Part shown: in pieces, positions 7,102-61,315 of the stretch
Layout of the letters: each line of letters starts with the position of its first letter
Position numbering within the stretch: the stretch's first letter is position 1
DNA from: a phage
Sequence record: OZ346158.1
Length of the DNA: 64,000 nt
Direction: 5' to 3' (one strand)
Notes under the pieces: model-generated
What the model was told of the DNA's origin: nothing
Seen by the model: the letters and a program-made list of their open reading frames with translations, nothing else
Database searches by the model: none
Position numbers and translations under genes: made by a program

Positions 7102-7696
7102 GAGGTGCATCAAGTGTGGAGAGGTGAAAAACCTCTCCGAGTTCTACAAACATCCAAAGATGTCTGACGGTCATCTTAATAAGTGCAAAGAGTGTTGCAA
7201 GAAGGCCAGCAGGGAGGCTGACCAATTTTCCCACGACTCTTCAGAAAAAGGTGTGATCCGCGTGTTGTACAAGACTCAAAAGTGCAACAGTAAGAAGAGA
7301 GGTCACCCACCTCCGACTTACACCAAAAAAGAGTTTAAGGAGTGGCTATACCTAAACGGTTACAAAGAGTTGTATGATCAATGGGTAGCCAGCGGATACG
7401 ACAAAAGGAAAAAGCCTTCTTGTGACAGGATAGATGATTTCAAAGGGTACTCTTTTGATAATATCCGTTTAACGACTTGGGGAGAAAATAAAGACAAGCA
7501 GACAGAGGATATTCTGTTACATAGAAGCACCAGCGGTAGACGGTGCAAAAATGTAAGGAGGTTGGACATGAATGGTAACGTTCTTAAAGAATGGGTATCC
7601 CACAATTCTTGCCGAAGAGAAACAGGGATATGTGTTGATTACTACATTCATGAAAAAATTCCAGCTCCCGATGGATACCTCTATGAATACTTCTAA
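7070..7696 (+). CDS. HNH endonuclease with CxxC zinc finger (free-standing)
   Basis: [10 protein letters not shown]...CKECC plus [25 protein letters not shown] core. Confidence 0.75.
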
Positions 7697-10471: not shown

Positions 10472-10717
10472 ATGAACAAAGGGTGGACATTTGTAGACGG
10501 CGTTGAAAACATGCCTCTAGGAAAGTATATTGTAGCCATGGCAGATGAGAATGGCAAGGTTGATTTCGGAGCTTGCGAGATTGTTCTTGCAGGATCTGGT
10601 GACCATGTGCACAAAACTGGGATAATTAACGGTCATTTCTACTTTGATTACAACCCTGTTGTGGCGTATATGGCTATGCCAGAGTTAGAGCTCCCAAAGG
10701 AGGGTGCAGATGTTTAA
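10472..10717 (+). CDS. hypothetical protein
   Basis: ORF with SD gcaggagat. Confidence 0.5.
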   Translation: MNKGWTFVDGVENMPLGKYIVAMADENGKVDFGACEIVLAGSGDHVHKTGIINGHFYFDYNPVVAYMAMPELELPKEGADV

Positions 10718-10907
10718 GCTTAAATCTGCATGGAACATCGCTGTGGGGGATGAGATCCGCATCCCAGGTGGAAAGACCATTATGAAGATATCACGTATCG
10801 AGTATGAAGGTGATCGTGTATTTCATATCTTTGCAGAAGATGGTCGAGAAATTTATATACAGGCAGGCTCTCACATCTATATCAGTAAGAAAGGGGACGA
10901 CAAATGA
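10704..10907 (+). CDS. hypothetical protein
   Basis: ORF with overlapping start. Confidence 0.45.
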   Translation: MQMFKLKSAWNIAVGDEIRIPGGKTIMKISRIEYEGDRVFHIFAEDGREIYIQAGSHIYISKKGDDK

Positions 10908-11236
10908 CAGAGATCATCGTTTCAACTGCAGGGTATGTATTCCTGACAATCATTGCGTTGGCTATTCTGGTGGCGGTGTATGGATTTGTTATCCTGCCTA
11001 TTCTTGAGACATTTAGCTTGTGTCGGTGTTGGAGAAAAGCTTACGGACCACAACCGTGGAAAGACTGGTTTCATTTGGTGCGTATAGCGTTCTCTTATGC
11101 CTATGATCACTCCAGCAGTGCATGCGTAACCGGGTACCATGCCTACAACTGGAACTGGGAAGGGCTTGGGAGATGGACTGTTACAAAAACTATACCCTTA
11201 CGGTTGTATAAAGGAAAGAACACACTGGGAGCCTGA
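10904..11236 (+). CDS. putative membrane protein
   Basis: Hydrophobic N-terminal segment VFLTIIALAILVAVYGFVILPIL. Confidence 0.45.
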   Translation: MTEIIVSTAGYVFLTIIALAILVAVYGFVILPILETFSLCRCWRKAYGPQPWKDWFHLVRIAFSYAYDHSSSACVTGYHAYNWNWEGLGRWTVTKTIPLRLYKGKNTLGA

Positions 11237-11544
11237 TATTTTAAGTTATCAGATTGCCAGAGATCAGGAGGATTTCTAAAATGGATTTCCTCCTTTTGAT
11301 ATTTTACCTACCAGGATATTTTAAAATCCTTAGAAAATCAGAAAATGGATCGAAAACTAAAATGGATTTTTCAGAGCAGGCACGACGAGATGAACCACTC
11401 ATCCTATCGTCTGCACCATATTCCAGACCACCATTACAGATTTCCCGCACATGCTCACATCCTTCTACTAGAACTTCCCCCACTTACCCTTGACCTTTTA
11501 TAGTAATAATCCAACCACTACCTTGAAGTTGTGGCGCAGCTTTC

Positions 11545-11720
11545 CAAGTACTCGATCTGTTTTTCGTTTCAAAGATTTAATTTTCTGAAAATTTTTCTCG
11601 ATAAATTTCTCAGTACTCGATCTGTTTTTCGTTTTCTGAATCGGATTTTCTGGAAATCGTTCCGGCTCTCGACCTGAAATTTTTGGGGACGAAATCGATT
11701 TTTCGTTTTCAGAAATGGAT
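11545..11720. repeat. Direct repeats (25-nt unit cagtactcgatctgtttttcgtttt x2 plus degenerate copies) in non-coding region
   Basis: Identical 25-mers at 11545-11569 and 11611-11635; related atcgatttttcgttttc at about 11693. Confidence 0.8.
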
Positions 11721-11839
11721 TTTTAAAATTTCTATATGGGAATATTTTAGTGGATACTATTTTATAGGAAATTGTTACGGAGGGTAATTAGCGTGCTAAT
11801 TAAATTTATTAAATGCGAGGAGTTCTCATTTAGAATTTT

Positions 11840-12050
11840 GAATGATAATCATTCTCGTTTGCAGAATAACGGGCAGGCCCGGTGATTGTCTCCCGGCCCC
11901 TACTGCCCCGGCTTGTTATTATAGTAACACACAGGACAAAGAAAGCAAGAAGTTTTTGCATAAATTTTTAGACGATAATGATAATCGTTCTCATTTCATG
12001 CAGCGCCCATCCCCGGTGGTTGTCTCCCCCGTCACCGGTGCCTGCCGTCC
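11840..12050. repeat. Two direct copies of a ~60-bp unit (gataatc..ttctc..gcag ... ccggtgRttgtctccc)
   Basis: Units at about 11840-11901 and 11972-12048; the 16-mer ccggtgattgtctccc recurs inverted at 21016-21031. Confidence 0.75.
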
Positions 12051-12238
12051 TTTCAATAGGTATATTTTGCCACCTGGCGGGGCCGCTGTCAACACTTTTC
12101 AAAAAAAAAATTCTAACCTGATGCGCTGACCGCTGCAACCTGGCAGGGCCTAACTGACCAGGTAGGAGAGAATGAAGGCTTGCAAACCTGGTGGGCCTAT
12201 GCTATAGGATAGGTAACAATTGAAGAGGAGGTACAAAA

Positions 12239-12415
12239 ATGGAAGGTAATATGATCCCCCTGGAAAATGTAGCTATTAATGACGCTGAGGCTATCGCCCT
12301 GGTTGAAAAGGCTATGGCGGGAGCGTTGGAACATAAAGAAGAGTACGAAAAAATGGTGGTTAACCTGGCAGGGGCGGCGGCTGGAGAATTCTACCCAAAA
12401 AATAATTTTAACTAA
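12239..12415 (+). CDS. hypothetical small protein (58 aa)
   Basis: Strong SD gaagaggagg 8 nt before ATG. Confidence 0.5.
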   Translation: MEGNMIPLENVAINDAEAIALVEKAMAGALEHKEEYEKMVVNLAGAAAGEFYPKNNFN

Positions 12416-12418
12416 TGG

Positions 12419-12447
12419 TTGACAGCTCGGACAGTTCTTGTTATTCT
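12419..12447 (+). promoter_or_regulatory. sigma70-like promoter TTGACA-N17-TATTCT
   Basis: Read directly. Confidence 0.5.
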
Positions 12448-12500
12448 TATCCTCGCAAGGTGAACAACACCACACCAATTAACAGAGAGGATAAAAAATC

Positions 12501-12698
12501 ATGAACGCCTACGGAATTAAAGTACGTCGCAACACTCGCCAGGTGGTCACCAATCAAGTGATTTGCCGGGTGGATGTAACCATCAACAACGGGCAAGGCC
12601 TTTATAAATTTCGTCGCGGTCATAGCTATACCCTGCAACAGCTTAACCGTTGCGCCCTGACAAAAGGTCAGATCAACCACTGGTTTAATAAAAAATAA
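12501..12698 (+). CDS. hypothetical protein
   Basis: SD agagagga; basic small protein. Confidence 0.55.
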   Translation: MNAYGIKVRRNTRQVVTNQVICRVDVTINNGQGLYKFRRGHSYTLQQLNRCALTKGQINHWFNKK

Positions 12699-12700
12699 TG

Positions 12701-12729
12701 TTGACATAGGGTCTGACACAAAATACACT
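12701..12729 (+). promoter_or_regulatory. sigma70-like promoter TTGACA-N17-TACACT with A-rich upstream tract
   Basis: Read directly. Confidence 0.55.
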
Positions 12730-12761
12730 GAAATCACAAAAGACACTAAGAGGATAAAATC

Positions 12762-13160
12762 ATGAAAACCACTACCTTTAATTTTGATAATGCGGACTTT
12801 TCTTTTTCTGATGTCAAGAACTGCCGCCGTGATCGTGGATTTTACAAGGCTTATAATCTGGTGGGCCTGGACGATGACAATAATTTGCACGAAGTAGCTG
12901 AGATCCGGTATTATGCCGCCGCCAGTGGTAACACTCACTACTGCGTGTTTTGGATTCACGACAACAAGAACAATAAGTACGGTTATACTGGCGGCAAGGC
13001 GAGCGGTCACGGTTACGATAAAGCTAACGCAGCACTTGAGAGCGCATTAAATGCTATGGGGATCACTGCCGACGGCTGGATCTACGAAGAAGAGTTTTTG
13101 TCGGCACTTGCTGACCACCTGGGCTATAAAAAGCACATTGTGACATGCGCCCACGAATAA
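12762..13160 (+). CDS. hypothetical protein
   Basis: SD aagaggata. Confidence 0.55.
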   Translation: MKTTTFNFDNADFSFSDVKNCRRDRGFYKAYNLVGLDDDNNLHEVAEIRYYAAASGNTHYCVFWIHDNKNNKYGYTGGKASGHGYDKANAALESALNAMGITADGWIYEEEFLSALADHLGYKKHIVTCAHE

Positions 13161-13243
13161 AAATCATTGACACGCTGCAAAATTTAAGTAAACTAGACAC
13201 AAAAGGCGGGAATGTTTCCCGCCAGCACAAAGGAAAAAAGATC

Positions 13244-13639
13244 ATGAATAAGAACGTACGCCGCATCATGAACGAACTGGCAAACGATGAAAAAATTATT
13301 GACATGCATTTAGTCAACATTTGCCGCCGTTGTGTAACATATAACAACCGCGCCGCAAAAGCGCGTGAGATGAACGCAAAAGGCACCTTAAAGCCCTTTC
13401 AGGTGGTTGTAAAATCTATAACCAGTGCAGCAGGCCAGGCGCATGACCACAACAACGGGAGCACTAATATTGATCCGTCTTACGTAATGAAACGGATCCG
13501 GACTTGCAAGAATAAAGAGCAGGTGTATAATGTCATAGACTGGTTGGATTCTATGGGCGATGTGGTTTACAATAGGTTTTCTGCAGCTATCGAGATCCAG
13601 CTTGACAGGTTGGACGGTAAAGTACTGAAAACTTACTAA
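13244..13639 (+). CDS. hypothetical protein
   Basis: SD aaaggaaaaaag; preceded by promoter and 5' hairpin ggcgggaatgtttcccgcc. Confidence 0.55.
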   Translation: MNKNVRRIMNELANDEKIIDMHLVNICRRCVTYNNRAAKAREMNAKGTLKPFQVVVKSITSAAGQAHDHNNGSTNIDPSYVMKRIRTCKNKEQVYNVIDWLDSMGDVVYNRFSAAIEIQLDRLDGKVLKTY

Positions 13640-13686
13640 GATTATTTTTAGATGGCCTTGACTTCAGGGCCATCAATAAAGTAAAC
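13640..13686 (+). repeat. 47-bp conserved intergenic element, copy 1 (hairpin gatggcc/ggccatc)
   Basis: Identical to 14271-14317; near-identical to 18010-18058. Confidence 0.85.
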
Positions 13687-13719
13687 TAATCCCAGTTAAG
13701 CGAAAAAGGAGGCTTGAAG

Positions 13720-13839
13720 ATGAGCACTACACGCCAACACACAAAGGTAACGATTATCGTTTGCATCATTGGTTACATCCTGGCGCAAATGTTGATGGGT
13801 AGCGCCAATGATTTCGCAAAATTTTTCTTAGACTTTTAA
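13720..13839 (+). CDS. small hydrophobic protein (39 aa)
   Basis: SD aaaaggagg; TM-like IIVCIIGYILAQMLM. Confidence 0.4.
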   Translation: MSTTRQHTKVTIIVCIIGYILAQMLMGSANDFAKFFLDF

Positions 13840-13867
13840 TTGACAAGCTAACTTAAATCAGTATAAT
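13840..13867 (+). promoter_or_regulatory. sigma70-like promoter TTGACA-N16-TATAAT
   Basis: Perfect hexamers. Confidence 0.6.
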
Positions 13868-13919
13868 ACTAAGCACATAAACGGGAAAACTTCCCAGAAC
13901 ACCAAAAGGAGAAAACATT

Positions 13920-14270
13920 ATGAATACTTCCATCACTATGACCGCCGAAGAAAAAGCCCTGCAGATCGCCGCTCTGAAAAAACAGATTGCAGAACTTGAA
14001 GACAAGATCGACAATTTTGAAATCGACGAAGACAAGTACGACGATAAATATGATGAATGGTTAGACGAGATCTACGGCGAAATTATGATCGGAAACATTT
14101 CTTTTCTTCCGTCGCGTATCCTCAAGGAGCTAGATCCTATCGCTTACCGCTGCGGATTTAGCGACTACATCGACAGCCTGGATATTGAGGACGATGAAGA
14201 ATACCAGGAATTACAGACAGAGTTAGAAGAAGCAAAAGAAGAGCTTGCAGAACTGGAAGAAAACGAGTAA
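13920..14270 (+). CDS. highly acidic coiled-coil protein (candidate DNA mimic)
   Basis: D/E-rich throughout (EDKIDNFEIDEDKYDDKYDEW...DIEDDEEYQELQTELEEAKEELAELEENE). Confidence 0.55.
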   Translation: MNTSITMTAEEKALQIAALKKQIAELEDKIDNFEIDEDKYDDKYDEWLDEIYGEIMIGNISFLPSRILKELDPIAYRCGFSDYIDSLDIEDDEEYQELQTELEEAKEELAELEENE

Positions 14271-14317
14271 GATTATTTTTAGATGGCCTTGACTTCAGGG
14301 CCATCAATAAAGTAAAC
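14271..14317 (+). repeat. 47-bp conserved intergenic element, copy 2
   Basis: Exact repeat of 13640-13686. Confidence 0.85.
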
Positions 14318-14359
14318 TTTATACTGTTAACACTGAACTAATGCATAGGAGTTAAAACC

Positions 14360-14605
14360 ATGGCAGCACTAATCACCAAATATTATGCCCCTACCAACAC
14401 CAAAAGCGCCCGTATCATGGTAAAAGGCTTCGGACGTAAAAAGGTGTACACCTGGGATTATGCCTTAGACACGGAAGACAACTACACCAACGCGATGACC
14501 GATTTTATTAATGATCTGAACACGCGGATCTTGACAAATTATAAAATTACCGATATTGCCTATATAGGGGAAGGCGGGATCTGTTTTGTCGGTATCGTCA
14601 AATAA
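14360..14605 (+). CDS. hypothetical protein
   Basis: SD ataggagtt. Confidence 0.55.
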   Translation: MAALITKYYAPTNTKSARIMVKGFGRKKVYTWDYALDTEDNYTNAMTDFINDLNTRILTNYKITDIAYIGEGGICFVGIVK

Positions 14606-14680
14606 GCTGTTTTTTCGGTGGTCCTGGTAGCAGGGCCATCTATAAAGATAGTTTATCAATACAATGAAAGGAGAAAGTAC

Positions 14681-15034
14681 ATGATCAGCGGGGCAAGTTT
14701 TATTATTGGCGCTATTGCTACGGCTTTAATTGTAAACAAGATCCAATCTAAAAACGAAAAAGATAGCAACGCCCTTACAGAATACCCGTTTTGGGTATTC
14801 AACGACAATGAAGACTATATTATCAAGTACAAGAATGAGAAGGGCGACCAGGTAACACCTCGACCGATCCCGGCTTACAAGATGCAAGAAACACTATACC
14901 GCCTAAAGGCTGGAGGCGCAAAAATCGTAGACTTTTGGGGATACGATCACACAGATCAGGAAGTTATAAAGCGCCGTATCCGGGCTATTCAGGCCAATAT
15001 TGAAGTTAGCAAGGGGGGAATATATGAAGATTAA
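14681..15034 (+). CDS. hypothetical membrane-anchored protein
   Basis: SD gaaaggagaaag; N-terminal TM FIIGAIATALIV. Confidence 0.5.
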   Translation: MISGASFIIGAIATALIVNKIQSKNEKDSNALTEYPFWVFNDNEDYIIKYKNEKGDQVTPRPIPAYKMQETLYRLKAGGAKIVDFWGYDHTDQEVIKRRIRAIQANIEVSKGGIYED

Positions 15035-15221
15035 TTTTGAGAAGATTGTAAAGCGATCTCATGCTTCCGAAGAGCTGCCGGAACGCCGCCAGCGCAACAA
15101 TAAACTGAATAAGCCAAAAAGATTTGGGAAGATCTGGCGGAATCATTATGATCGCAAATTACCGGGCCTGCTTTTGGAACGTGAACGACAGGCGGAACGA
15201 TACCGCCACAAAGGCAAATAA
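15024..15221 (+). CDS. small basic protein
   Basis: SD aaggggggaa; Arg/Lys-rich. Confidence 0.45.
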   Translation: MKINFEKIVKRSHASEELPERRQRNNKLNKPKRFGKIWRNHYDRKLPGLLLERERQAERYRHKGK

Positions 15222-15230
15222 CAACCAACG

Positions 15231-15256
15231 CCCCGCCATTGTGCGGGGCTTTTTAT
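15231..15256 (+). terminator. intrinsic terminator
   Basis: gccccgc-cattg-tgcggggc followed by TTTTTATTT. Confidence 0.7.
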
Positions 15257-15403
15257 TTCTATCCTACAAATAGCGCCCCTGGTTGGCCCTGTAAGCGCCA
15301 AAAAGGCCCCACCTATGCAATCGCCCCCCCTTTAACCTGAAAACATCGCTTAGGGCCGTTTTATGGCGTTAAAAATATCATTGACAGTGATTTTATTTAA
15401 AGC

Positions 15404-15431
15404 TTGACATCTTAAACAGGTTAGCTATACT
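15404..15431 (+). promoter_or_regulatory. sigma70-like promoter TTGACA-N16-TATACT
   Basis: Read directly; a second TTGACA lies 23 nt upstream. Confidence 0.55.
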
Positions 15432-15463
15432 AACCACATCAAAGAGAGAAAGGAGTAAACGCC

Positions 15464-15724
15464 ATGCGTAAATTAAAAAATTTTGATAAAGTTGATGTTG
15501 TCCTGAATAATTTTTACTACTGCAACAACAAGGCCATTTGGTGGCGTGATAGTTCCACCGATAAAGTCAAGGCGCGCTTTCTCCAGGGGCACTGGCAAGG
15601 CCGCCCAGTGATTAAAATCATGGGGCAATTGGTAGCGTTTAAAAATTGCCGCCGTGTTGATGACGTTGAAGAGATCTTGAATATTTTACGCCACAATAAT
15701 TTAAAAAATAGTGTTGACAAGTAA
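15464..15724 (+). CDS. hypothetical protein
   Basis: SD gaaaggagtaaacg. Confidence 0.55.
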   Translation: MRKLKNFDKVDVVLNNFYYCNNKAIWWRDSSTDKVKARFLQGHWQGRPVIKIMGQLVAFKNCRRVDDVEEILNILRHNNLKNSVDK

Positions 15725-15741
15725 ATCTCAATAAGTATACT
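15714..15741 (+). promoter_or_regulatory. sigma70-like promoter TTGACA-N16-TATACT, followed by 5' hairpin ggcgggaagttttcccgcc
   Basis: Read directly. Confidence 0.55.
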
Positions 15742-15798
15742 TAAGCACACAGGCGGGAAGTTTTCCCGCCACTAACAAAGAAAATAGGAGAAAATATC

Positions 15799-16422
15799 AT
15801 GACCACCGTTAACATTACCACAGGTTGCAATTTATCTTTCGACGTGCTGACCGACGAACAAAAAGAAAAAGCTATTGAAATGGTCCGCGAAAGAGAAGAA
15901 CACAGCGGAGAGGATTTTTTCGCAGAAAGTGTAATTGAATATTATAAAGAACAAGTTTTTCCAGAGTACGGCCTTGAAGATACCGATGTACATTGGTCCG
16001 GCTTTTGGTGTCAAGGCGATGGCGCGTCAATTAATGCTGAAAATGTAGACTTAGAGAAATTCTTGCGTAAAGTCAAGGCCCTGACCAAGTTCCGATCAAT
16101 TCGTCACTTGTTCGGCACAATGCACGATGGCGAACTATCAGCCAGTGTTGAACGCGACAAGTACAGCCATTACAGCCATGAAAACACTGTAAGCGGATAT
16201 ATTGATACTACCTGGCTAGATCTGACCGCAAAACAAGAAAATAAAGTAGAAGATCTGGAAGAGCTGATCACCGAGACGGTACGGGAGCTATCCCGCAAGG
16301 TTTATGTAGACCTGGAGGAGGCCTATCTTGAACAGTTTACTACCGAAAACCTGATCGGCCTTATTGAAGCCAATGATTGGCGGTTTGATGTGGATGAATA
16401 TGGAGAAATGAGTTTTTCATAA
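15799..16422 (+). CDS. hypothetical acidic protein
   Basis: SD aataggagaaa; 207 aa, E/D-rich. Confidence 0.55.
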   Translation: MTTVNITTGCNLSFDVLTDEQKEKAIEMVREREEHSGEDFFAESVIEYYKEQVFPEYGLEDTDVHWSGFWCQGDGASINAENVDLEKFLRKVKALTKFRSIRHLFGTMHDGELSASVERDKYSHYSHENTVSGYIDTTWLDLTAKQENKVEDLEELITETVRELSRKVYVDLEEAYLEQFTTENLIGLIEANDWRFDVDEYGEMSFS

Positions 16423-16513
16423 ATAAAGTGTTGCAATAATCTAAAAACCTGCTATATTAAAACTTAAGGGGGAGAGATGACTTGCCCCCACACAAAACAA
16501 AGAGGAAAACATC

Positions 16514-16894
16514 ATGAAAAACACTACTAAAGCTATTGACACCGTTATGTTTAACCTGGTTACATTCCGTGAAGATATGAAAGATCTTCCACGTGAAACA
16601 GTGTGCGACCATATCGAAAACTATCGCAAACTAATCAAAGAGTTGCCTTTAAAACGTGACCAGTACGCGGCTAACGCTATGCTTAACGCCATGATCAAGA
16701 AAATGATTCAGTGCGATTTGACTTTAGCTTATGATTATGCAGGTGGTCGTTTTGCAGTATACAATCAGCCCGTGCCTGGTATGAGCACCACAGAAGAATT
16801 GCACGCGTTAAATCTAAAACAAGACGTATGGGATAACATGCCCCGCGTGGTGGTGTGGGCAGAAAGCGGAAAGATTTACGGCGATAATTTTTAA
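16514..16894 (+). CDS. hypothetical protein
   Basis: SD agaggaaaac. Confidence 0.55.
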   Translation: MKNTTKAIDTVMFNLVTFREDMKDLPRETVCDHIENYRKLIKELPLKRDQYAANAMLNAMIKKMIQCDLTLAYDYAGGRFAVYNQPVPGMSTTEELHALNLKQDVWDNMPRVVVWAESGKIYGDNF

Positions 16895-16958
16895 TCAGGT
16901 AACAGGCGGCATATTTGCCGCCTTATTGTTAAACAGAACTGCAAAAGAGGTACATAGA

Positions 16959-17330
16959 ATGGAATTTATTATTTTGGCTGTAGTAGTTGCCTTGTTCAAC
17001 GCCTGGATCGCTGGCAAGATAGGTAGATCCGCTTTTCTATGGTTTGTTATATCTATTTTCCTGGGAGTGGTTGCAACTATTGTATTGGTTATCCTTGCAA
17101 TTGTTGACAAGGGGAATAATAGAAAGGGTAAAGTATTTTCAGACCTGTACGACGCTCAAACGTTTGTCAACGCCTATTATAGTGATCTTCCAGTCTCCCT
17201 ACGTTGCAGCCTTGCACAACAGGTTTTCGATGAAGCTAAAACCAGAGATCACGCCCATGAGATTTGTTTAACTGAGGCGGATCGCCTATTTGAGAGGAAT
17301 AGAAAATATGTGGACCAGCCGTTTAAATAA
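16959..17330 (+). CDS. membrane protein (2 TM)
   Basis: FIILAVVVALFNAWIA and LWFVISIFLGVVATIVLVILAIV. Confidence 0.5.
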   Translation: MEFIILAVVVALFNAWIAGKIGRSAFLWFVISIFLGVVATIVLVILAIVDKGNNRKGKVFSDLYDAQTFVNAYYSDLPVSLRCSLAQQVFDEAKTRDHAHEICLTEADRLFERNRKYVDQPFK

Positions 17331-17547
17331 TGCCACGTTAATTAACCCCTTTAGTGAAGATTTGAAGCCAGCCGCCTGGCGGGATGGATTCAATAACGAA
17401 AGCTTTATTTTCAGGCCTGATCTTAAGGAATTTTATAACAATGGATCGAACAACGACAGAGATAATTTTTCTTGTAATGTGCGTGGTGATAATACTCCTG
17501 GGGGCCATTGCAAACCACGTCACTGCTAACAGGAGGAAAGGGGAGAC

Positions 17548-17668
17548 GATGACACCCAAGGATAAGCCCCGTACCGATAAGGCGCGCCGTGTTATGGTAT
17601 GGCTTGAGATCATCGCCCTTGAAATATTGTTAGGCGTAGGGATGTATTTTATCGCTGTAAGTAATTGA
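17548..17668 (+). CDS. small membrane protein
   Basis: SD aacaggaggaaagggg; TM VMVWLEIIALEILLGVGMYFIAV. Confidence 0.4.
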
Positions 17669-17808
17669 TAACGGCCCCGATCCCTGGGGCCTAACTTTTC
17701 AAATTTTTTTCTCCCTGAGTGTTGCAATCCGATCCAGAATATGGATAATAACAATCAACGGGGAGACACTCCCCACCGCATAGACAAAGTTCCAAAAGGA
17801 GAAACAAA

Positions 17809-18009
17809 ATGAGCAACAATATCCGCGTTATTAACTTCAAAAAAGAAGAAAAAATTGCCGTGCTGATTGACGGTCAAGAAATCTTTAAAGGTGATTATGA
17901 AGATCATCAAACGGCGATTAGTATCACTCGCGTGATTGGTTACCATAATTTTTACCCTCAAGGCGCTGAGGCAGCAGTAAAACGAATTAAAGAGATTGTA
18001 GGCCTGTAA
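17809..18009 (+). CDS. hypothetical protein
   Basis: SD caaaaggagaaac. Confidence 0.55.
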   Translation: MSNNIRVINFKKEEKIAVLIDGQEIFKGDYEDHQTAISITRVIGYHNFYPQGAEAAVKRIKEIVGL

Positions 18010-18058
18010 AATTTATTTTTAGATGGCCTTGACTCCAGGGCCATCAATAAAGTAAATT
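18010..18058 (+). repeat. conserved intergenic element, copy 3 (2 mismatches)
   Basis: tttttagatggccttgactccagggccatcaataaagtaaa. Confidence 0.8.
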
Positions 18059-18100
18059 TAAACCCTGTTAAAATAATCAGTGCAAAAAGGAGTAATGATC

Positions 18101-18400
18101 ATGTTTATCCAGGCTAATAATCTTTATTTCTTTGATGGTCAGATCGTAGACGGCGTGGAGGTGGAAATCACCGGGTGCCCTGGCGGTCAGGTTATGACTT
18201 TTCGGAATAATGCCTTTGATGATTCTCATATCGTTATGAGAATGGAAGTTAGTAAGCTGGATGACAAGAAAACACTCATTGATTATTCCGTGAAAGATCA
18301 TCCAGACTACCACATGATCTATGGTGATTTGTGCATTGTTGACCGTGACAAGGTGGGCGGCATTGTGATCGCTATTGTGAACGATGTTTTCTCAAACTAA
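18101..18400 (+). CDS. hypothetical protein
   Basis: SD aaaaaggagtaatg. Confidence 0.5.
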   Translation: MFIQANNLYFFDGQIVDGVEVEITGCPGGQVMTFRNNAFDDSHIVMRMEVSKLDDKKTLIDYSVKDHPDYHMIYGDLCIVDRDKVGGIVIAIVNDVFSN

Positions 18401-18417
18401 TTTCAGCAGGTGATTTT

Positions 18418-18768
18418 ATGAAAGTAAAACTATATTACCTTAATGAGCTTAACCCCCTTGCCCAGGTCCGCGCCATGGCTAATACCTTGATTTGTGAGAA
18501 ATCTGTATATTGTGTTGAGCTTAACTCCATGCGTGAACGTCTCAAAGGTGGTTACTTTGACATCCATGCTGCAATCAACGGCCTGAATATGGAATTTATC
18601 CGCTTACGTAACAGCCGCCAGAATCTGGGAAGAATGGAACAAGATCCGGCCCACCTTCGTAAGCTGGTTATTGAAAATCATCTAATGTTTAATGCCGATG
18701 GTGATTATTACCATTTTCACCGTAAACGCTGGTACCGTAGCGGCAATATAGGAAAGAATGCAAAATAA
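18418..18768 (+). CDS. hypothetical protein
   Basis: ORF. Confidence 0.5.
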   Translation: MKVKLYYLNELNPLAQVRAMANTLICEKSVYCVELNSMRERLKGGYFDIHAAINGLNMEFIRLRNSRQNLGRMEQDPAHLRKLVIENHLMFNADGDYYHFHRKRWYRSGNIGKNAK

Positions 18769-18976
18769 GGCCCCTGGCAGGGCCTGCAGCGATATAATCA
18801 CATAAAGGCTATGCGGTTGCATAGCCTTTATTATTTTGGCGTTACAGCGGCCCCCAAGGCGCTTAAAAAAATTTTTAAAGAAGTACTTGCATCAAGTCCT
18901 ACAATATGGATAATAAAGGGTGTCGGGGGGGCGGTGAGGCCTCCAATCATTAACCGGATAGATAGGAGTTAAAACC

Positions 18977-19261
18977 ATGGCTATTGTTACCGTTGGCGAT
19001 GTAGTAGAAATGGAAGCCAAATACTTAAAAGCTGGTATGCATATCATACGGAATGATCAAGAATTGTTATTAACCATGGTTGAATATAATCCCGGTCAGG
19101 ATTATCCAAGCATTGACTACTTTTTCCAGTATGTTGATGAAGAATTAAAAGAGGATGAGGCTTATCAGGGTGAATTTTGTAATTTCTTTTGCCCTGATGA
19201 GGTTGTAAAAGTTATCTATCAACCTGGCGTACCTTTCCCGCTGCACGCTATCAACAAATAA
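18977..19261 (+). CDS. hypothetical protein
   Basis: SD gataggagtt. Confidence 0.55.
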   Translation: MAIVTVGDVVEMEAKYLKAGMHIIRNDQELLLTMVEYNPGQDYPSIDYFFQYVDEELKEDEAYQGEFCNFFCPDEVVKVIYQPGVPFPLHAINK

Positions 19262-19316
19262 ACCTGGCGGGGCCGAAAAGGCCCCCAATTATGAAAATAA
19301 AGAGAGGCAAATCATC

Positions 19317-19550
19317 ATGATGGAACAAATTAAACGCGCCGAGGCTATTAATGGCAACGTGATCTATTTTGTCAGCAAAAACGAAAAAGGCGTACCCTAT
19401 GCGGCGGTAATAGTACAGCCTGACGGCGATTATTGGTGTACTGTGTACGGCGCTTATTCTTTTGGGCGTCCAGTGCATGATAAAATTTTGAAAGTAGCGA
19501 ACCCTACCGGGAAAAATATCACAGCAGAAAAATTTTTTGAAAATAGTTGA
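19317..19550 (+). CDS. hypothetical protein
   Basis: SD aagagaggcaaa. Confidence 0.5.
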   Translation: MMEQIKRAEAINGNVIYFVSKNEKGVPYAAVIVQPDGDYWCTVYGAYSFGRPVHDKILKVANPTGKNITAEKFFENS

Positions 19551-19621
19551 CATGACCATATAAGACTGTAGTATATAAATCAAAGGGGCAAGCCCCACCA
19601 ACCACAAAGAGGATAAAAATC

Positions 19622-19801
19622 ATGGCTATTATTGCAAAGACTGAGATCGTAGGCTTGGATTCTATTCTCCTCGCATATGAGGAAGCTATAGAAATGTATG
19701 TGGTTTCCTATGGTGAGTATATCCGTGAATATAAATCTATTGATCTGGCTTTTGAATGTTATATTCGCCAGGTTAATAAAGCGTACGATGATTATCGTTA
19801 A
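19622..19801 (+). CDS. hypothetical small protein
   Basis: SD aaagaggataaaaat; downstream of promoter at about 19547. Confidence 0.45.
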   Translation: MAIIAKTEIVGLDSILLAYEEAIEMYVVSYGEYIREYKSIDLAFECYIRQVNKAYDDYR

Positions 19802-19891
19802 AATAGTTTGAAAACAAACAACCATCTTACAAAGCATAATACATAAGGCGGTGGAATGGTCCGCCACCTGGAACAAGAAGAGGAAAACAAA

Positions 19892-19996
19892 ATGAAACAG
19901 AAATTAATTGATGCGGTGATCCTGGTTATTGCCCTGGGTATTGGCCTGATTGCAACCATGGCTAATGTGATCTTGTCTTCCAACGGTATCGGGTGA
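19892..19996 (+). CDS. small single-TM protein (34 aa)
   Basis: SD aagaggaaaac; AVILVIALGIGLIATMA. Confidence 0.35.
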   Translation: MKQKLIDAVILVIALGIGLIATMANVILSSNGIG

Positions 19997-20311
19997 GGTT
20001 GGCAAATGATCACTAACAAAACAGGCAAGCGGAATTTTTACTCAACTTACAGATCGGCAAGCCTGAGATCTGGTATTGCACTAAAACACCACGTGACGAA
20101 ATGAAAGACTTCACCGCCACGCTGCAACGGGTAAAGATATCCATCACGCAGAAAAAGGCCTTGATAGTGGTGGAAGGTGAGATCCCTCAAACCGTTGTTA
20201 TAGTTGAGCGTACAGCATAGTTTAATTTATACCGATACCCGAAAATTAACCAACAAAGCATAAACAGGCGGTTACCGCCGCCTTAAACGTAGCAGAAAGA
20301 GGATAGACACA

Positions 20312-20596
20312 ATGAAAAAGATGATCGCAGTGGTTGCCCTGGTTGTTGGACTTAATGCGCCTGTAATGGCTAAAGAGCTGGCAAAAGAGGTTAATCTAAC
20401 GGATATTCATGCCGTCAATCGAATCGGGGTTACTTATCGCTTATGCCTTGCCGCTAAAACTTTTAAGGACGGCACGACAGAGTACTACGGATTCGAAGGT
20501 GTCCGGTGCGGTGAACTTGCTCGCGACCTTAAGGAAGATCCAGACCTGGAGGATCTGCCCATCACCGTAAACGGGAAAACTTACGTAAACCGTTAA
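20312..20596 (+). CDS. secreted/periplasmic small protein
   Basis: Signal peptide MKKMIAVVALVVGLNAPVMA. Confidence 0.55.
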   Translation: MKKMIAVVALVVGLNAPVMAKELAKEVNLTDIHAVNRIGVTYRLCLAAKTFKDGTTEYYGFEGVRCGELARDLKEDPDLEDLPITVNGKTYVNR

Positions 20597-20744
20597 CCAT
20601 GATAAAGATAATCATCACCTTGGCATCGTGGCGGGATCGCTGGCGCTCTTTCTCCTTATGGTTAGGTATGTGCTGATCGGTATTGTCCTGGTAGTCAGTG
20701 ATCTATTGGAAACGGTTGGCACCTTGTTTTAAAGAGCGGTAAAA

Positions 20745-20936
20745 ATGAATATCGAACAAGTTAGAAAGGTATTGGCGGTACTGCGTTATCATAATCATAG
20801 AAAGGTCATAGACGATCCTGATTATGTCGATTCAAGCCTGGAAGGGGATACACTACAAGCCATAAGTAACATGCAAGAATTGCTAAAGCGCATGACAGAG
20901 AAAAACCGACCGGACTACATAGGCGAAAAAATATAA
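20745..20936 (+). CDS. hypothetical protein
   Basis: ORF followed by terminator hairpin at about 20955. Confidence 0.5.
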   Translation: MNIEQVRKVLAVLRYHNHRKVIDDPDYVDSSLEGDTLQAISNMQELLKRMTEKNRPDYIGEKI

Positions 20937-21015
20937 TCCTTATAAACTACAAAACAGGGCTTGCAATGGTCCTGTTTTTTGTTATACTTGTTTCACGGCA
21001 GGCGCCTGGCGACGG

Positions 21016-21031
21016 GGGAGACAATCACCGG
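21016..21031 (-). repeat. inverted copy of 16-mer ccggtgattgtctccc (extended similarity 20996-21035)
   Basis: Exact reverse complement of 11879-11894; about 85 percent match to 12014-12048. Confidence 0.8.
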
Positions 21032-21063
21032 GTGTGCCTGCTATATAAAAACTATAAAAACCG

Positions 21064-21092
21064 TTGACATCTGCCAGGTGGTGGGGTAGCAT
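21064..21092 (+). promoter_or_regulatory. sigma70-like promoter TTGACA-N17-TAGCAT
   Basis: Read directly. Confidence 0.5.
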
Positions 21093-21147
21093 TTATCTCG
21101 AAGGGGGCAAAAGCGCCCACACAACAACCGGAAGAGAGGAAAACGCC

Positions 21148-21420
21148 ATGTTAAGCTGGATTAACCAAGAAGTTGAATCACGTTTCAATGCTATTTGGGA
21201 TCTCATCGAAAAAGAGGACGGAACATCAAGCCCTTATCTCAATAATCTTGAATTCCATTTCGTGGAAGCGATGAACGCAGAACATGATCACGAAGGTGGT
21301 GCGGATGAATTCGCTAAAGGATATGGCTTCAACAATGCCAACGAAATGATCGAGGCGGTTGTACTCCAGGCTGAGGAAGATTATCAATTAAAAACGCTTG
21401 AATTCTGCCGCCGTAAGTAA
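21148..21420 (+). CDS. hypothetical protein
   Basis: SD aagagaggaaaacg. Confidence 0.5.
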   Translation: MLSWINQEVESRFNAIWDLIEKEDGTSSPYLNNLEFHFVEAMNAEHDHEGGADEFAKGYGFNNANEMIEAVVLQAEEDYQLKTLEFCRRK

Positions 21421-21482
21421 TAAGATAATGACACGGGCCAAAAGGCCCACTAAACAAAAACCACATAAAGAGGAAAAACATC

Positions 21483-21746
21483 ATGAAACGTCTTGATCAG
21501 CTCAAATTAGTTCAATATATGGCTTATCGTGTTCTTGAAGTCCAGAAAGGTAGCAAAAAAGAGGTTTGCGAGAAAGCTTATAAGATCTTCACTCGCAAAA
21601 AAGATGATTGGATGTTACGCCAGACCAAAAAAGCCGATATCTTGGGGTACCTGGAAGAAGAGATCCGGCTTGAAGAGCAAGAAGAGATCCGCCGCAGTGA
21701 GGCAGATTATCAGGCAGCTTGGGAAAACTGGATGAATAACAAATAA
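21483..21746 (+). CDS. hypothetical protein
   Basis: SD aaagaggaaaaac. Confidence 0.5.
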   Translation: MKRLDQLKLVQYMAYRVLEVQKGSKKEVCEKAYKIFTRKKDDWMLRQTKKADILGYLEEEIRLEEQEEIRRSEADYQAAWENWMNNK

Positions 21747-21812
21747 TACAACAAGTTACATGGTCAGGGGCAATAAAGCCCCTTGATCACATAAAAATTA
21801 TGCCATCCTTGG

Positions 21813-21841
21813 TTGACAGGGATCGGCAGTTTTGCTATATT
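21813..21841 (+). promoter_or_regulatory. sigma70-like promoter TTGACA-N17-TATATT
   Basis: Read directly. Confidence 0.55.
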
Positions 21842-21890
21842 CTTTTTTGAAGGGAAGTTGTAAGAAAATTAACTAAGAGGTAAAAACACC

Positions 21891-22310
21891 ATGAACATTA
21901 AATCTAATAATCCGGCATATAGCTTTGATAACGCTTTTTGTCACGGTCCGGCGGCGAAAGGATTCGAAATCGATGGTAAACTAGTTATTGTCAATGTTGA
22001 CGGGGAAGAGGTTGCAGTATATCCGGTGGCAGACGTTAAAAGCCGTCTACAATGCCGCATCGATGTTACCGCCTACCAGCTTGATCCGGTCCGGGTAGTT
22101 GCCCTGGTCCTGGAAGAAGAAATTAAAGCAATGCACCACAGCAACAAGTTTATTGGTGACGCTCAAGATAATATGAAGGTGTGCCGCCATAAAGTTAATG
22201 AAGTGCTTAAAGAATATGGCTTTAAAGATCTGATGATCAAACGTGAGGAAAAATTCCGCTACCGTAACGACCTGGCAAATCGGATTTTTGAAATATACGA
22301 ATCATTATAA
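21891..22310 (+). CDS. hypothetical protein
   Basis: SD taagaggtaaaaac. Confidence 0.55.
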   Translation: MNIKSNNPAYSFDNAFCHGPAAKGFEIDGKLVIVNVDGEEVAVYPVADVKSRLQCRIDVTAYQLDPVRVVALVLEEEIKAMHHSNKFIGDAQDNMKVCRHKVNEVLKEYGFKDLMIKREEKFRYRNDLANRIFEIYESL

Positions 22311-22328
22311 TTTCTTAACTGAATTATC

Positions 22329-22356
22329 AAGGGGCTTAAAGGCCCCTTTCTTTTTG
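22329..22356 (+). terminator. intrinsic terminator closing the + strand block
   Basis: aaggggc-ttaaag-gcccctt followed by TCTTTTTG. Confidence 0.7.
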
Positions 22357-23123
22357 TCTGCTCTTCTCCTACCATAAACGGCCCTACCTGGCAAGTGGAA
22401 TAATTGACTAGCCATCAATCCCACATACTGTACAAATATACATGGAAAATAACTATTGCATAATTTTTCATTGTGTGGTAGCAAGTCCATTTTTACCCGT
22501 TTTCTCTCCCAAAAGTGCACGTAATGCCGCTATTGCACAAATTTTAACCTGATGCACATCTCCAATATCTTGTCAACAACTAAAAATCTTTATAAGTCAT
22601 ACACTTACACAGCATCGAAAGCGTGTTCTACGCGAAAAATCGAGTATAACTATAGCCGCCAGATCTCAGAATTCACGTACGCACGCCATTCTATAGCCTG
22701 CAAAGTATTTATTCCAACCACAGAATAACGGAATAGTCAATACCTGCATAAAATAATTATTCGTGTAAACTGCATAACATAAATCAGCTCAGGTGTCAAC
22801 ATTTTTCGTAAACAGTCCGAAATTATCACGATGAGTTATCATAAACAGAGAAATCTTTAGTCGTCTAATGTTTACTGTACATTACTATACTGACTGGAAT
22901 CATTAGATGACTAATACAATAGAACAAATTAATAATGTAATTATTTTACCTGTAACAATAAGGCAACTATGCAAACGAATGGCATGGCGCGACGGAGTCG
23001 CGACATAATATAAAAGCAGTAACCATCACCCCCGTGATAGTTTGTCTGCAAACTATTAATCAGATCATAGTTGCCTTGTATTTAGTTAATCATGACATAA
23101 CAAGCAAGGCAACTATAGATATA

Positions 23124-24998: not shown

Positions 24999-25253
24999 TC
25001 ACAGCTCTACAATATTTGCATCTGACCCTACCCCAAAGGCATAATAGGACTCTTCCCCGAAATAATATTCAGGTGCACCAGCGGTGATCAGGTCTGCTCC
25101 TAAGATAAACACTACGTTGTGGCCTACATAACTGTGATGTTGCCGAACAGGATCATCCCACGGCAACCCTTCAAAGTATACCGCAGGAACGACCTTTCCC
25201 TTCAGGAAGGATTGTCCCAAGTAGACGTTAGAATCAAGAATTTTAACCTTCAT
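24999..25253 (-). CDS. small protein, MKVK-LD/LIAAGA paralog family
   Basis: MKVKILDSNVYLGQ...GADLITAGA. Confidence 0.55.
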   Translation of the reverse strand: MKVKILDSNVYLGQSFLKGKVVPAVYFEGLPWDDPVRQHHSYVGHNVVFILGADLITAGAPEYYFGEESYYAFGVGSDANIVEL

Positions 25254-25470
25254 GATTGTCCTCCACTATCTCTACATCCTCACCTAGGGCAAAGTTGTAG
25301 GTCCACTGACTGTCAAAGCATTCCTGAGATGCACCAGCGGCAATAAGATCTGCCCCTTTTATTTTTAAAAGGTCGGGGTAATCTTCGTTAGGGACAGCAG
25401 TAAACACTTTCCCCACTAAGGGCTCCTGACCAATATAGAAGCTCGAATCTAAAACTTTAACTTTCATCAA
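25243..25470 (-). CDS. small protein, MKVK-LD/LIAAGA paralog family
   Basis: MKVKVLDSSFYIGQ...GADLIAAGA...EIVED. Confidence 0.55.
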   Translation of the reverse strand: MMKVKVLDSSFYIGQEPLVGKVFTAVPNEDYPDLLKIKGADLIAAGASQECFDSQWTYNFALGEDVEIVEDNHEG

Positions 25471-25754
25471 CGGTCTCCATCAGGTGGTTGTGGGACGTAA
25501 ACACTGTTACGAATATCGTCCGCAGTATAGTAATAAGTGTCTCCAACCCTATCTCTGGCTGCAATGTACTCTGCTATACCAATAAGTGCCATTGATTTGG
25601 TGGCGTATCTTCCCCACTCGTTAGCTCCCCAGTAGAATTTAGACCAGTAAGGAATAAGACCGAACAAATATACCTTTTGACGAACTTCCCAGTAAGTGCC
25701 TTTTCCGACAAGTTTAAACTCGACTTCACTACTGTTAATCTTTTTCATTATCAA
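25467..25754 (-). CDS. hypothetical protein
   Basis: ORF, translationally coupled. Confidence 0.5.
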   Translation of the reverse strand: MIMKKINSSEVEFKLVGKGTYWEVRQKVYLFGLIPYWSKFYWGANEWGRYATKSMALIGIAEYIAARDRVGDTYYYTADDIRNSVYVPQPPDGDR

Positions 25755-26047
25755 TCTCCCTCTACCGTGGTAGGATTGTCAGTAAGAAATTGAGCATTGG
25801 CTGGAGGCACGCCTGACATTTTCCACACAACCATAAGTTTGTAACCAGGCACTCTATTAAGTGCAGATCGAGTAGAGTTTGTGCACGTATACTTTCGCTT
25901 TCCAAACCCGTTCTCCATCATAATCCAGTACCCAGTATCTTTGTCACCAGGTATCGGTAGACCACCTTCATCAACCCACTGAATGGACCACGGCACGATG
26001 GCTACAGCTTTATATTTAAACTTTTTAAACCACTCAAAAAGTTTCAT
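25751..26047 (-). CDS. hypothetical protein
   Basis: ORF. Confidence 0.5.
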   Translation of the reverse strand: MKLFEWFKKFKYKAVAIVPWSIQWVDEGGLPIPGDKDTGYWIMMENGFGKRKYTCTNSTRSALNRVPGYKLMVVWKMSGVPPANAQFLTDNPTTVEGD

Positions 26048-50686: not shown

Positions 50687-50754
50687 GGTTAAACCCTCCC
50701 TAACATTGTATGAGGTAACAATACCACGTCCGTGTGGTCATGTCAATGATACTG

Positions 50755-58204: not shown

Positions 58205-58278
58205 ACCAGTAAAAACTTAAATATCTGTACTATAAGGATTCGTATGTTTTATGTTCGCTCTGGAACAGAGGTTAGTAA

Positions 58279-58361
58279 CTGTCCGTGATACGGACACTAC
58301 TGTCCGTCACGCGGACACATCTGCCCGTAATACGGACACTAACTGTCCGTGATACGGACAC
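58279..58361. repeat. Four tandem about 21-bp palindromic iterons (consensus cTGTCCGTgatACGGACAc)
   Basis: Copies at 58279, 58300, 58321, 58343; each has 7-bp inverted arms with a 3-nt spacer; followed by AT-rich tract 58362-58490. Confidence 0.85.
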
Positions 58362-61211: not shown

Positions 61212-61308
61212 GCTAGGTAAGCCCTTTGGCAAGGGCGAGGATTTTTAATCCTGAAAATAGACGAGGTAGTCGTTGAATACATAGGTGGTTCGATTCCATC
61301 ACCTAGCA
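61212..61308 (+). tRNA. atypical tRNA-like gene (possible tRNA-Lys UUU with about 30-nt variable region)
   Basis: Perfect 7-bp acceptor gctaggt/acctagc, D-arm gccc..gggc, T-loop ttcgatt; anticodon arm imperfect; 97 nt. Confidence 0.4.
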
Positions 61309-61315
61309 CCTTTTT

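Follow-up and report, generated by a model that had tools for sequence, protein, structure and literature searches.

Candidate cis-regulatory modules with predicted Fur operators at the borders of the early gene island of an rV5-like phage

What is the role of a short inverted repeat that brackets some 9 kb of small genes in a virulent phage? The question is raised by a stretch of phage DNA of 64,000 nucleotides (record OZ346158.1), referred to here as the window, in which the 16-mer CCGGTGATTGTCTCCC lies at positions 11879-11894 and recurs as its exact reverse complement at 21016-21031. An interpretation made from the letters alone (the sequence-only reading) had offered for these arms a recombination or inversion cassette, a modular swap region, or shared operator sites, and the last of these comes closest. 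With a probability of roughly one half, each arm is one copy of a cis-regulatory module of ~100 bp that stands at the borders of the early gene island and would carry face-to-face promoters and, at the left border, operators for the host iron regulator Fur.

Copies and anatomy of the border module

The record closest to the window is that of Escherichia phage JohannBauhin (Vequintavirus), which in a megablast search with positions 11500-21500 was 98.4% identical over 100% of the query. The search returned 189 phage records, 91 of which cover at least 80% of the query in a single collinear place. On the basis of this best match and the 91 collinear records, the window is that of a Vequintavirus, namely an rV5-like virulent myovirus of Escherichia coli.

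A pattern search confirmed the two exact arms, designated W1 (left) and W3 (right). The degenerate third copy that the sequence-only reading had placed near 12014-12048 was borne out as well, at 12013-28 on the plus strand with one mismatch, and is designated W2. The extended similarity of W1 to W3 covers 29 nt at 86% identity (11866-94 versus 21016-44), and that of W2 to W3 covers 43 nt at 77% (11994-12036 versus 21008-50). By simple arithmetic, ~0.5 exact inverted 16-mer pairs are expected by chance in 64 kb, and thus the repeat alone is weak evidence. It is considered non-random because the window holds three copies of the pattern versus 0.39 expected, because the 16-mer with three or fewer mismatches is confined to the three homologous sites in the complete JohannBauhin genome (135,602 bp), and because the same box is found at both island borders of six other genera. 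The possibility that the 16-mer is scattered over many unrelated positions of the genome, which would have told against the sequence-only reading, thus does not hold for JohannBauhin.

The anatomy of the module was defined from an alignment of 19 copies from seven genera and from inspection of each copy in its sequence context. Along the GGTG strand, the order of elements is a Fur-box-like palindrome, a -10-like hexamer, a 12-nt box, and a GC-rich stretch that varies in length. A sigma70-like promoter (TTGNNN-16/17-TATAMT) lies on the other strand and reads back toward the box. The box has the sequence GGTG[A/T/G]TTGTCTC, with no change in any copy at GGTG or at the TT next to the variable base; the G after this TT is replaced by A in two right copies. 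Alignment columns 1-26 are ungapped, and the spacing is thus fixed, with the -10-like hexamer lying 12-13 nt from GGTG in the 19 copies. The hexamer is CAGAAT in left copies and TATATA or ATATAG in right copies. It varies (CAGAAT, CTAAAT, TATATA, TGAATA) yet stays -10-like, which favors a real promoter, with a transcript that would begin ~6 nt ahead of the box. The box itself could be an operator for a protein or the 5' end (+7 to +18) of that transcript. It was compared with the sites of IHF, DnaA, CRP, FadR, PhoP, and RcsB, and with sigma54 and sigmaE promoters, ops, Chi, dif, RyhB, OmrA, GcvB, and the 3' end of 16S rRNA, and no convincing match was found among these.

The promoters on the box strand, referred to as promoters A, point into the island from both borders, and the facing promoters B point outward. 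In W1 and in phage CR3 (Certrevirus), the -10 hexamers of the two are 50 nt apart. Promoter B scores at least 9/12 in 12 of 20 copies, and in these its -10 lies 25-37 nt from the box; the search was restricted by position, and in the random-position background 10% of window positions reach at least 9/12. Note that the outward promoter of W3 is also the plus-strand promoter upstream of 21148-22310. Coordinates are provided in Table 1.

Table 1. Predicted features at the borders of the early gene island and within it (window coordinates)
Feature	Position	Strand	Remarks
Noncoding left border region	11237-12238		1 kb between the last packed upstream gene and the first island gene; no credible open reading frame
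Three direct repeats	11538-11723	+	65-74 nt spacing; each with (A)CTCGATC/TTTTTCGTTT; iteron-like
W1 inward promoter-like site (A)	11838-11867	+	TTGAAT (11838-43)-18-CAGAAT (11862-67); overlapped by Fur box
W1 Fur box	11838-56 (19-mer)	+	7-1-7 core TGATAATCATTCTCG at 11843-57; AATGATAATCATT at 11841-53 is an exact Fur-box core
W1 left arm 16-mer	11879-11894	+	Contains the invariant box GGTGATTGTCTC (11881-92)
W1 outward promoter-like site (B)	11918-11948	-	TTGCTT-19-TATAAT; leftward into the box; 9/12
W2 inward promoter-like site (A)	11956-11992	+	TTGCAT (11956-61)-18-GATAAT (11980-85); overlapped by the best Fur box of the window
W2 Fur box	11974-92	+	GATAATGATAATCGTTCTC; 17/19 of the 19-bp consensus; best in the window
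W2 second left 16-mer copy	12013-12028	+	One mismatch; box GGTGGTTGTCTC at 12015-26
W2 outward promoter-like site (B)	12064-12092	-	TTGACA-17-CAAAAT; upstream TG; 10/12
Early gene island	12239-20936	+	~28 small open reading frames without assigned function
PeSL-like cassette (51 nt, four copies)	13637-13687; 14268-14318; 14603-53; 18008-58	+	Terminator hairpin GGCCTTGACTTCAGGGCC with -35 in its loop, then -10
W3 outward unit	20951-20988	+	Terminator hairpin 20951-78 overlapping promoter TTGCAA-16-TATACT (20961-88, upstream TG); rightward into the box
W3 right arm	21016-21031	-	Exact reverse complement of W1; box at 21018-29
W3 inward promoter-like site (A)	21042-21070	-	ATGTCA-17-TATATA; weak, 8/12; no Fur box in this genus

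Predicted Fur operators and conservation across genera

A scan with the 19-bp Fur consensus, allowing three or fewer mismatches, gave three matches in the window versus 0.03 expected, the W2 site accounting for two of these (one per strand). The best two Fur-box matches in the whole JohannBauhin genome are the sites homologous to those of W1 and W2, and they occur only there. The 7-1-7 motif TGAKAATNATTMTCA is present in 16 related phage loci and in none of 84 other loci, nearly all of which are unrelated IMG/VR contigs. The Fur box overlaps the -35 region and spacer of promoter A in W1 and its -10 in W2, the promoters themselves being predicted. Operators placed over the core promoter, as these predicted ones are, are typical of Fur repression. 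Nearly all left copies have the 16-mer offset by 41 nt from the Fur box.

The right copy lacks a Fur box in the E. coli phages, and a full Fur box is kept in the right copy of phage Mydo (Mydovirus). In the right copies of CR3 and GEC_vB_MG (Seunavirus), a remnant of the Fur box is set off by a GC-rich insertion. The ancestral module probably had a Fur box at both borders. Arrays are seen in relatives: CR3 and AV126 (Phapecoctavirus) carry four Fur boxes at ~29-nt spacing, four to five are present in phage KKP_3264, and a second noncoding region of PcCB7V holds at least eight Fur-box-like sites. One of the PcCB7V boxes is identical in 22 of 23 positions to a sequence that lies 40-62 nt upstream of iucA on ~690 E. 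coli plasmids (ColV-type) and that we take to be the classical aerobactin Fur operator. The PcCB7V sites (L006 10650-11460) lie within a 1.7-kb convergent noncoding region and include GATAATGAGAATCATTATC (18/19); the same region has repeated ATCTGCATAAA -10-like motifs and, at ~10770-10885, a duplicated segment of ~23 nt (TTACGTTCCCACGG.TCAAGGGA). No earlier description of the border element or of the Fur boxes was found in the literature on this phage family, and the link to Fur appears to be unreported for it.

How far does the module extend beyond the genus? Distant blastn searches with the intergenic regions recovered only the units themselves, that is ~11805-11896 on the left and ~20948-21047 on the right, at 72-88% identity. 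The matches were to Phapecoctavirus, Justusliebigvirus, Certrevirus, Seunavirus, and Mydovirus, to phages of Klebsiella, Enterobacter, and Pectobacterium, and to an Aeromonas phage. Inverted pairs of the unit stand at both borders of the block of small open reading frames (ORFs) in seven genera belonging to two subfamilies, with spacings of 9,137 nt in the window, 9,116 in JohannBauhin, 8,760 in the congeneric phage Gotham, 9,849 in AV126, 10,252 in KKP_3264, 10,662 in CR3, 7,245 in Mydo, and ~7,900 in GEC_vB_MG. The genes in between turn over. When 29 island ORFs were compared by tblastn with the corresponding regions, homologues were found for 6-7 in AV126 and KKP_3264, three in CR3, two in SSE121, one in Mydo, and none in PhAER-3. 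The comparison with related phages that had been proposed with the sequence-only reading thus shows island content that varies between genera between arms that stay.

A host origin of the unit was ruled out: none of 5,426 E. coli genomes matched 11800-12110 in blastn, and when 185,579 species genomes of bacteria and archaea were scanned for the pattern, the single match lay on a 4-kb contig of a metagenome-assembled genome that is a Phapecoctavirus-like fragment. Since the arms are kept across genera, the genes turn over, and the bacterial genomes lack the unit, the arms are judged to be phage-specific and under strong purifying selection. In several genera a small leftward gene lies just inside the left unit (L002 1753-2019, L008, L005 1868-2053, and L004 ~2100-2282, all on the minus strand). 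One such protein is common to AV126 and KKP_3264 and another to Mydo and SSE121; in the window this place is taken by the duplicated unit W2.

In the arrangement we favor, promoter A, whose -10-like hexamer stands at a fixed 12-13 nt from the box, would point into the island, and promoter B (TTGNNN-16/17-TATAMT), 25-37 nt beyond the box, would point out of it. The inverted repeat would arise because the modules lie at opposite borders and are thus inverted relative to one another. At the left border, iron-loaded host Fur would repress inward transcription and iron starvation would release it, given that the Fur operator overlaps promoter A at both W1 and W2. At the right border, the Fur box would have been lost in this genus, and promoter B would double as an early promoter for the three genes downstream of 21148. 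The sequence features, their constant geometry, their confinement to the island borders in one complete genome, and their retention in seven genera between which the enclosed genes turn over are observations; active promoters, binding by Fur, and control or insulation of early transcription by the module are what we infer from them. A further step can be proposed with considerable reserve, namely that virulent rV5-like and phAPEC8-like phages read host iron through Fur. In that proposal the phage-specific module, kept in two subfamilies, would hold Fur operators acting on a promoter whose transcript starts with the box. Either this transcript would be a Fur-repressed small RNA or leader of the phage, or the face-to-face promoters would form a Fur-gated switch or insulator, and host takeover would be tuned to the available iron.

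Weighing the border module against other explanations

Several observations weigh against this arrangement. All of the promoter and operator calls are matches to consensus sequences. Promoter A reaches only 8/12 in most copies, a score attained by 12% of random positions, and it is broken by the GC-rich insertion in the right copies of CR3 and GEC_vB_MG. Most island genes have promoters of their own, so that the benefit of an additional Fur-controlled promoter is not evident. Leftward transcription from W1 and W2 has no known target, and the invariant box has no assigned ligand. Finally, a purely promoter-based model leaves unexplained the strong conservation of the ~20 nt between the -10 and the box.

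An RNA product is the main rival explanation, one that we consider rather unlikely. The units would be genes for small RNAs or leader RNAs, with the promoter A RNA carrying the 12-nt box near its 5' end as a seed or recognition sequence. From W3, a minus-strand RNA of ~95 nt would then run to the bidirectional terminator at 20951-78, and W1 and W2 would give Fur-repressed copies. In a variant of this scheme, the A RNA of W1 and W2 would pair with the complementary plus-strand leader of W3, and this sense/antisense kissing pair would regulate 21148-22310. In 19 of 19 copies the distance of the box (~+7 to +18) from the -10-like hexamer is fixed, the hexamer stays -10-like through differing sequences, and W1 and W3 are perfectly complementary across 16 nt, all of which are in keeping with a transcript. 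On the box strand, W3 and the right copies of AV126 and KKP_3264 continue into a terminator hairpin with a U-rich tail, but W1 and W2 have no terminator and the right copies of Mydo and CR3 have no U-tail on that strand. Likewise, single copies can fold into two-tier GC-rich hairpins that present the box on stems differing between genera (CCGG/CCGG, GCG/CGC, GGTGG/CCACC, GGTGA/TCACC, CCGGTG/CACCGG), with some pairs being G-U on this strand, whereas RNAalifold run on the 19 copies found no shared structure (-1.97 kcal/mol, covariation term -0.09, 6 pairs). Folding z-scores from shuffling are near zero in 10 of 13 copies, and neither strand has a consistent folding advantage. Rfam gave no relevant match to the whole window at gathering thresholds, and with both arms at E<=10 only chance-level matches. 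A conserved hairpin was dropped as the defining feature after the RNAalifold, shuffling, and strand comparisons. Moreover, the box is kept as sequence and does not covary between left and right (GGTGTTTGTCTC on the left and GGTGATTATCTT on the right in AV126), which argues against simple self-pairing. What is conserved in the module, as judged from the alignment, is primary sequence and spacing. The same fixed spacing of Fur box, -10-like hexamer, and box points to promoter control rather than to bulk titration, which makes it scarcely credible that the Fur boxes serve as decoys. According to that idea, replicating phage DNA would titrate Fur and derepress host iron uptake for the benefit of iron-dependent ribonucleotide reductases. 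The phage does encode class I and class III ribonucleotide reductases, and in relatives the noncoding DNA of both borders does contain Fur boxes in arrays of 4-8 or more. In this genus, however, there are only two boxes per genome, few in comparison with the thousands of Fur molecules that are present in a cell.

Recombination was the first suggestion of the sequence-only reading, and we regard it as highly improbable for the arms. They would be substrates either as crossover sites of an invertible segment, like those of Mu G and P1 C, or as homology patches resembling promoter-early stem-loop (PeSL) elements, through which the early gene block is swapped. The inverted repeats do bracket a block whose gene content is almost wholly different between genera, and there are insertions and deletions within the genus, 18418-18768 and 21891-22310 being absent from Gotham. 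PeSLs have been proposed to mediate modular shuffling in T4-like phages (PMC2839356, PMC4122927), and PeSL-like terminator/promoter cassettes are present within the island, and W3 includes one as well. Yet no inverted arrangement was seen: 114 and 111 records cover at least 80% of the left-arm and right-arm queries, respectively, collinearly, the 91 records mentioned above span 11500-21500 in one collinear place, and the direction of the island genes relative to the arms is constant in seven genera. No Pfam recombinase domain was detected in the nine island ORFs and one flanking ORF searched, and the JohannBauhin annotation lists no serine invertase, the profile search having covered these ten ORFs only. 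The arms themselves are short (16 exact and ~30-43 degenerate nt). An inversion switch is thus not supported, and the notion of a modular swap region holds only in a weak sense, in that the arms persist and the content between them differs from genus to genus. Homologous recombination of one arm with the other would flip the block, not replace it, and a homology patch would not require that Fur box, spacing, and promoters be conserved. The turnover of island genes is, we infer, better attributed to the internal PeSL-like cassettes. A last explanation, which we hold to be improbable, looks to DNA-level function: the left border would be a replication origin or a landmark, such as a DNA-entry stop of the kind used in the first-step transfer of T5, and the W units would be origin-activating promoters or structural sites. 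The 1-kb noncoding region is AT-rich, has three iteron-like repeats each with GATC in a layout kept in three genera, and lies ~8 kb downstream of the DNA polymerase and primase genes, but a scan found no DnaA boxes, the GC skew merely tracks gene strand, and the right-hand copy is left unexplained. With regard to a landmark, the island of Gotham is located at ~2.4-11.4 kb, adjacent to a physical genome end that has a terminal repeat of 459 bp (PMC7471380). Two-step DNA entry is not reported for this family, however, and the segment homologous to the Gotham terminus is missing from the window. Neither the DnaA-box scan nor the GC skew supports an origin at the left border.

The left border region is closed by W1 and W2 and also holds short AAATGGATTT motifs. 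Triple CTCGATC repeats equivalent to those in Table 1 lie immediately upstream of the Fur boxes in SSE121 (L004 1546-1754) and CR3 (L003 1444-1624), and thus the layout of repeats, Fur boxes, and box recurs in Seunavirus (SSE121) and Certrevirus (CR3). A 95-aa ORF (11842-12129), annotated as a hypothetical protein in JohannBauhin and Gotham, spans both left units and starts inside the Fur box. It is probably a spurious gene call, since the IMG/VR relative L071 has stop codons in it despite conserved DNA.

The genome ends require comment. For Gotham, terminal repeats of 459 bp were reported (PMC7471380), its record starts ~2.4 kb beyond its right arm, and Gotham 686-1492 matches window positions 23127-22323. 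At the junction 23127/23128, the window lacks 6,440 bp of JohannBauhin (91,820-98,259). In relatives, this segment contains the 459-bp terminal repeat of Gotham type together with ~18 small genes on the minus strand. Of 125 matching phage records, not one spans the junction, which may reflect either a deletion variant or a join made in assembly. Because the window lacks the terminal-repeat segment and no record spans the junction, a position of the island near a physical end is not claimed for this genome. Within the stretch homologous to the Gotham terminal repeat, which is outside the window, JohannBauhin carries GGTGCGCATAATGGGTATTATGTTAAAT at 92331-92358 (L001 15119-15146). We take this sequence to be almost identical to the XerCD site dif of E. 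coli, with both arms exact and the center TGGGTA instead of TGTATA. Two weak Fur-like 7-1-7 sites follow it in JohannBauhin.

The early gene island and its relation to known systems

The island is 93-98% identical to Vequintavirus genomes along its entire length. The sequence-only reading counted about 25 short genes between the arms; the present count is ~28 plus-strand ORFs of 32-207 aa with Shine-Dalgarno (SD) sequences, and JohannBauhin has 27 annotated coding sequences between the homologous arms. Many of these ORFs have sigma70-like promoters and terminators, in line with the sequence-only reading. Promoter-like sites (47 in 10500-22500 versus 28.4 +/- 5.4 in shuffles) and terminator-like sites (21 versus 11.2 +/- 3.3) are both enriched, and for at least 13 of the ~28 ORFs a promoter with three or fewer deviations from the consensus lies no more than 130 nt upstream. 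The contrast that had been drawn with the coupled genes on either side is upheld: gaps between island ORFs are mostly 55-92 nt, whereas the flanking genes overlap or abut, with tight packing at 10472-11236 on the left and at 24999-26047 (minus strand) on the right. Nine island proteins and one flanking protein (101-207 aa) all fall into PHROGs of unknown function, and no significant Pfam domain was found in these ten; the other island ORFs are mostly below 100 aa. According to the JohannBauhin annotation, the genes for DNA polymerase and primase/helicase are found upstream, on the same strand and ~8 kb before the left border region, and ribonucleotide reductases, other DNA-metabolism genes, and a tRNA cluster lie farther along.

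A region of many short hypothetical ORFs with sigma70-type promoters has been described in the rV5 genome (PMC3606486), and a similar region in Certrevirus CB7 was termed a likely early gene region (PMC7344957). As a cluster of small ORFs with sigma70-like promoters in the corresponding position, the island agrees with these descriptions (PMC3606486, PMC7344957). It is the already known early gene region of rV5-like phages, early timing being assigned by resemblance. The sequence-only reading mentioned neither this identity nor the Fur boxes and the facing promoters. Four cassettes within it have the design of PeSLs, a terminator stem-loop fused to a sigma70 promoter and repeated between small ORFs. 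The W3 segment at 20951-88 has the same design; this classification concerns the cassettes and not the 16-mer box.

Some individual ORFs behave differently from the rest of the island. The 39-aa ORF at 20101-20220 encodes a protein with 86-90% identity in AV126, KKP_3264, and CR3 and 49% in SSE121, and it is far better conserved in the other subfamily and genera than every other island ORF. Just outside the right arm, the 139-aa ORF at 21891-22310 is 93% identical in AV126 and has no match in the homologous region of Gotham, which suggests recent exchange between subfamilies. Elsewhere in the window, four tandem repeats of 21-22 nt (TAACTGTCCGTGATACGGACAC) at 58276-58361, each with the palindrome GTCCGT-N4-ACGGAC, are likely an operator array; in JohannBauhin, the nearby gene carries the annotation of a putative transcriptional regulator. 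At 61212-61310, ARAGORN predicts a 99-nt tRNA with the four-base anticodon 'atcc' (Rfam tRNA, 35.5 bits), the homologue of which is tRNA-Lys in JohannBauhin; it may be intron-containing or aberrant. Segments of ~640-840 bp at 1444-2285, 7054-7690, 35487-36283, and 50751-51542 are absent from JohannBauhin and are candidates for mobile insertions, for example homing endonuclease genes.

Many small ORFs, strong SD sequences, and mostly sigma70-type promoters with terminators are likewise features of the early or host-takeover clusters of rV5 and Certrevirus, the hyperplastic regions of T4, the SPO1 host-takeover module, and the pre-early region of T5. In Gotham, a relative of this phage, the island is moreover close to a physical genome end. 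The descriptions of rV5 (PMC3606486) and Certrevirus (PMC7344957) mention neither a conserved inverted border element nor Fur boxes. PeSL motifs flank ORFans in the T4-like hyperplastic regions (PMC4122927), and like the PeSL cassettes (PMC2839356, PMC4122927), the copies at 13637, 14268, 14603, and 18008 and the left half of W3 (20951-88) place a terminator plus early promoter between small ORFs. Unlike PeSLs, the arms add the invariant 12-nt box, the facing promoter, and the predicted Fur operator, and they are found at the borders only, inverted and conserved far beyond the genus.

In operator sequence, and in its overlap with the -35/spacer or the -10, the predicted sites resemble Fur-repressed promoters such as those of aerobactin iucA and of stx1 and sitABCD on temperate phages. 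Here, by contrast, the predicted operator is in a strictly virulent phage, at a noncoding border of the early region, with no iron-related gene downstream. Short promoter-proximal elements in two inverted copies, following oppositely oriented early promoters, are also seen in nutL/nutR of lambda and putL/putR of HK022. The nut and put sites act as RNA with defined stem-loops, whereas the arms have no supported conserved structure; in addition, the same-sense promoters here converge on the island instead of diverging from a control region, and no antiterminator is known in this family. In pR/pL of coliphage 186 and Pant/Psar of P22, two promoters likewise converge across a few tens of bp, and one of the two carries an operator. 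Those are lysis-lysogeny switches with known repressors and transcripts, and the present promoters are predicted, in a virulent phage, in two to three copies. Mu G/Gin, P1 C/Cin, and Salmonella Hin likewise have inverted repeats flanking a gene block. Unlike those systems, the island shows no invertase in the ten ORFs searched, no apparent similarity to gix or hix, and no inverted isolate among more than 100 genomes, and it consists of ~28 early genes rather than alternative tail-fiber or flagellin genes.

The island itself is ordinary for the family. What stands out is a noncoding module of ~100 bp that is better conserved than nearly all of the genes it brackets and that spans phages of Escherichia, Salmonella, Klebsiella, Cronobacter, Pectobacterium, Serratia, Proteus, and Aeromonas. 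With three sites, one 12-nt box, and two Fur boxes, it offers a concrete handle on the control of a poorly understood early region. If Fur does bind, a strictly lytic phage would have wired a nutritional regulator of its host into its earliest transcription, which would bear on infection in iron-poor niches such as the gut and infected tissue, and on the therapeutic use of these broad-host-range phages.

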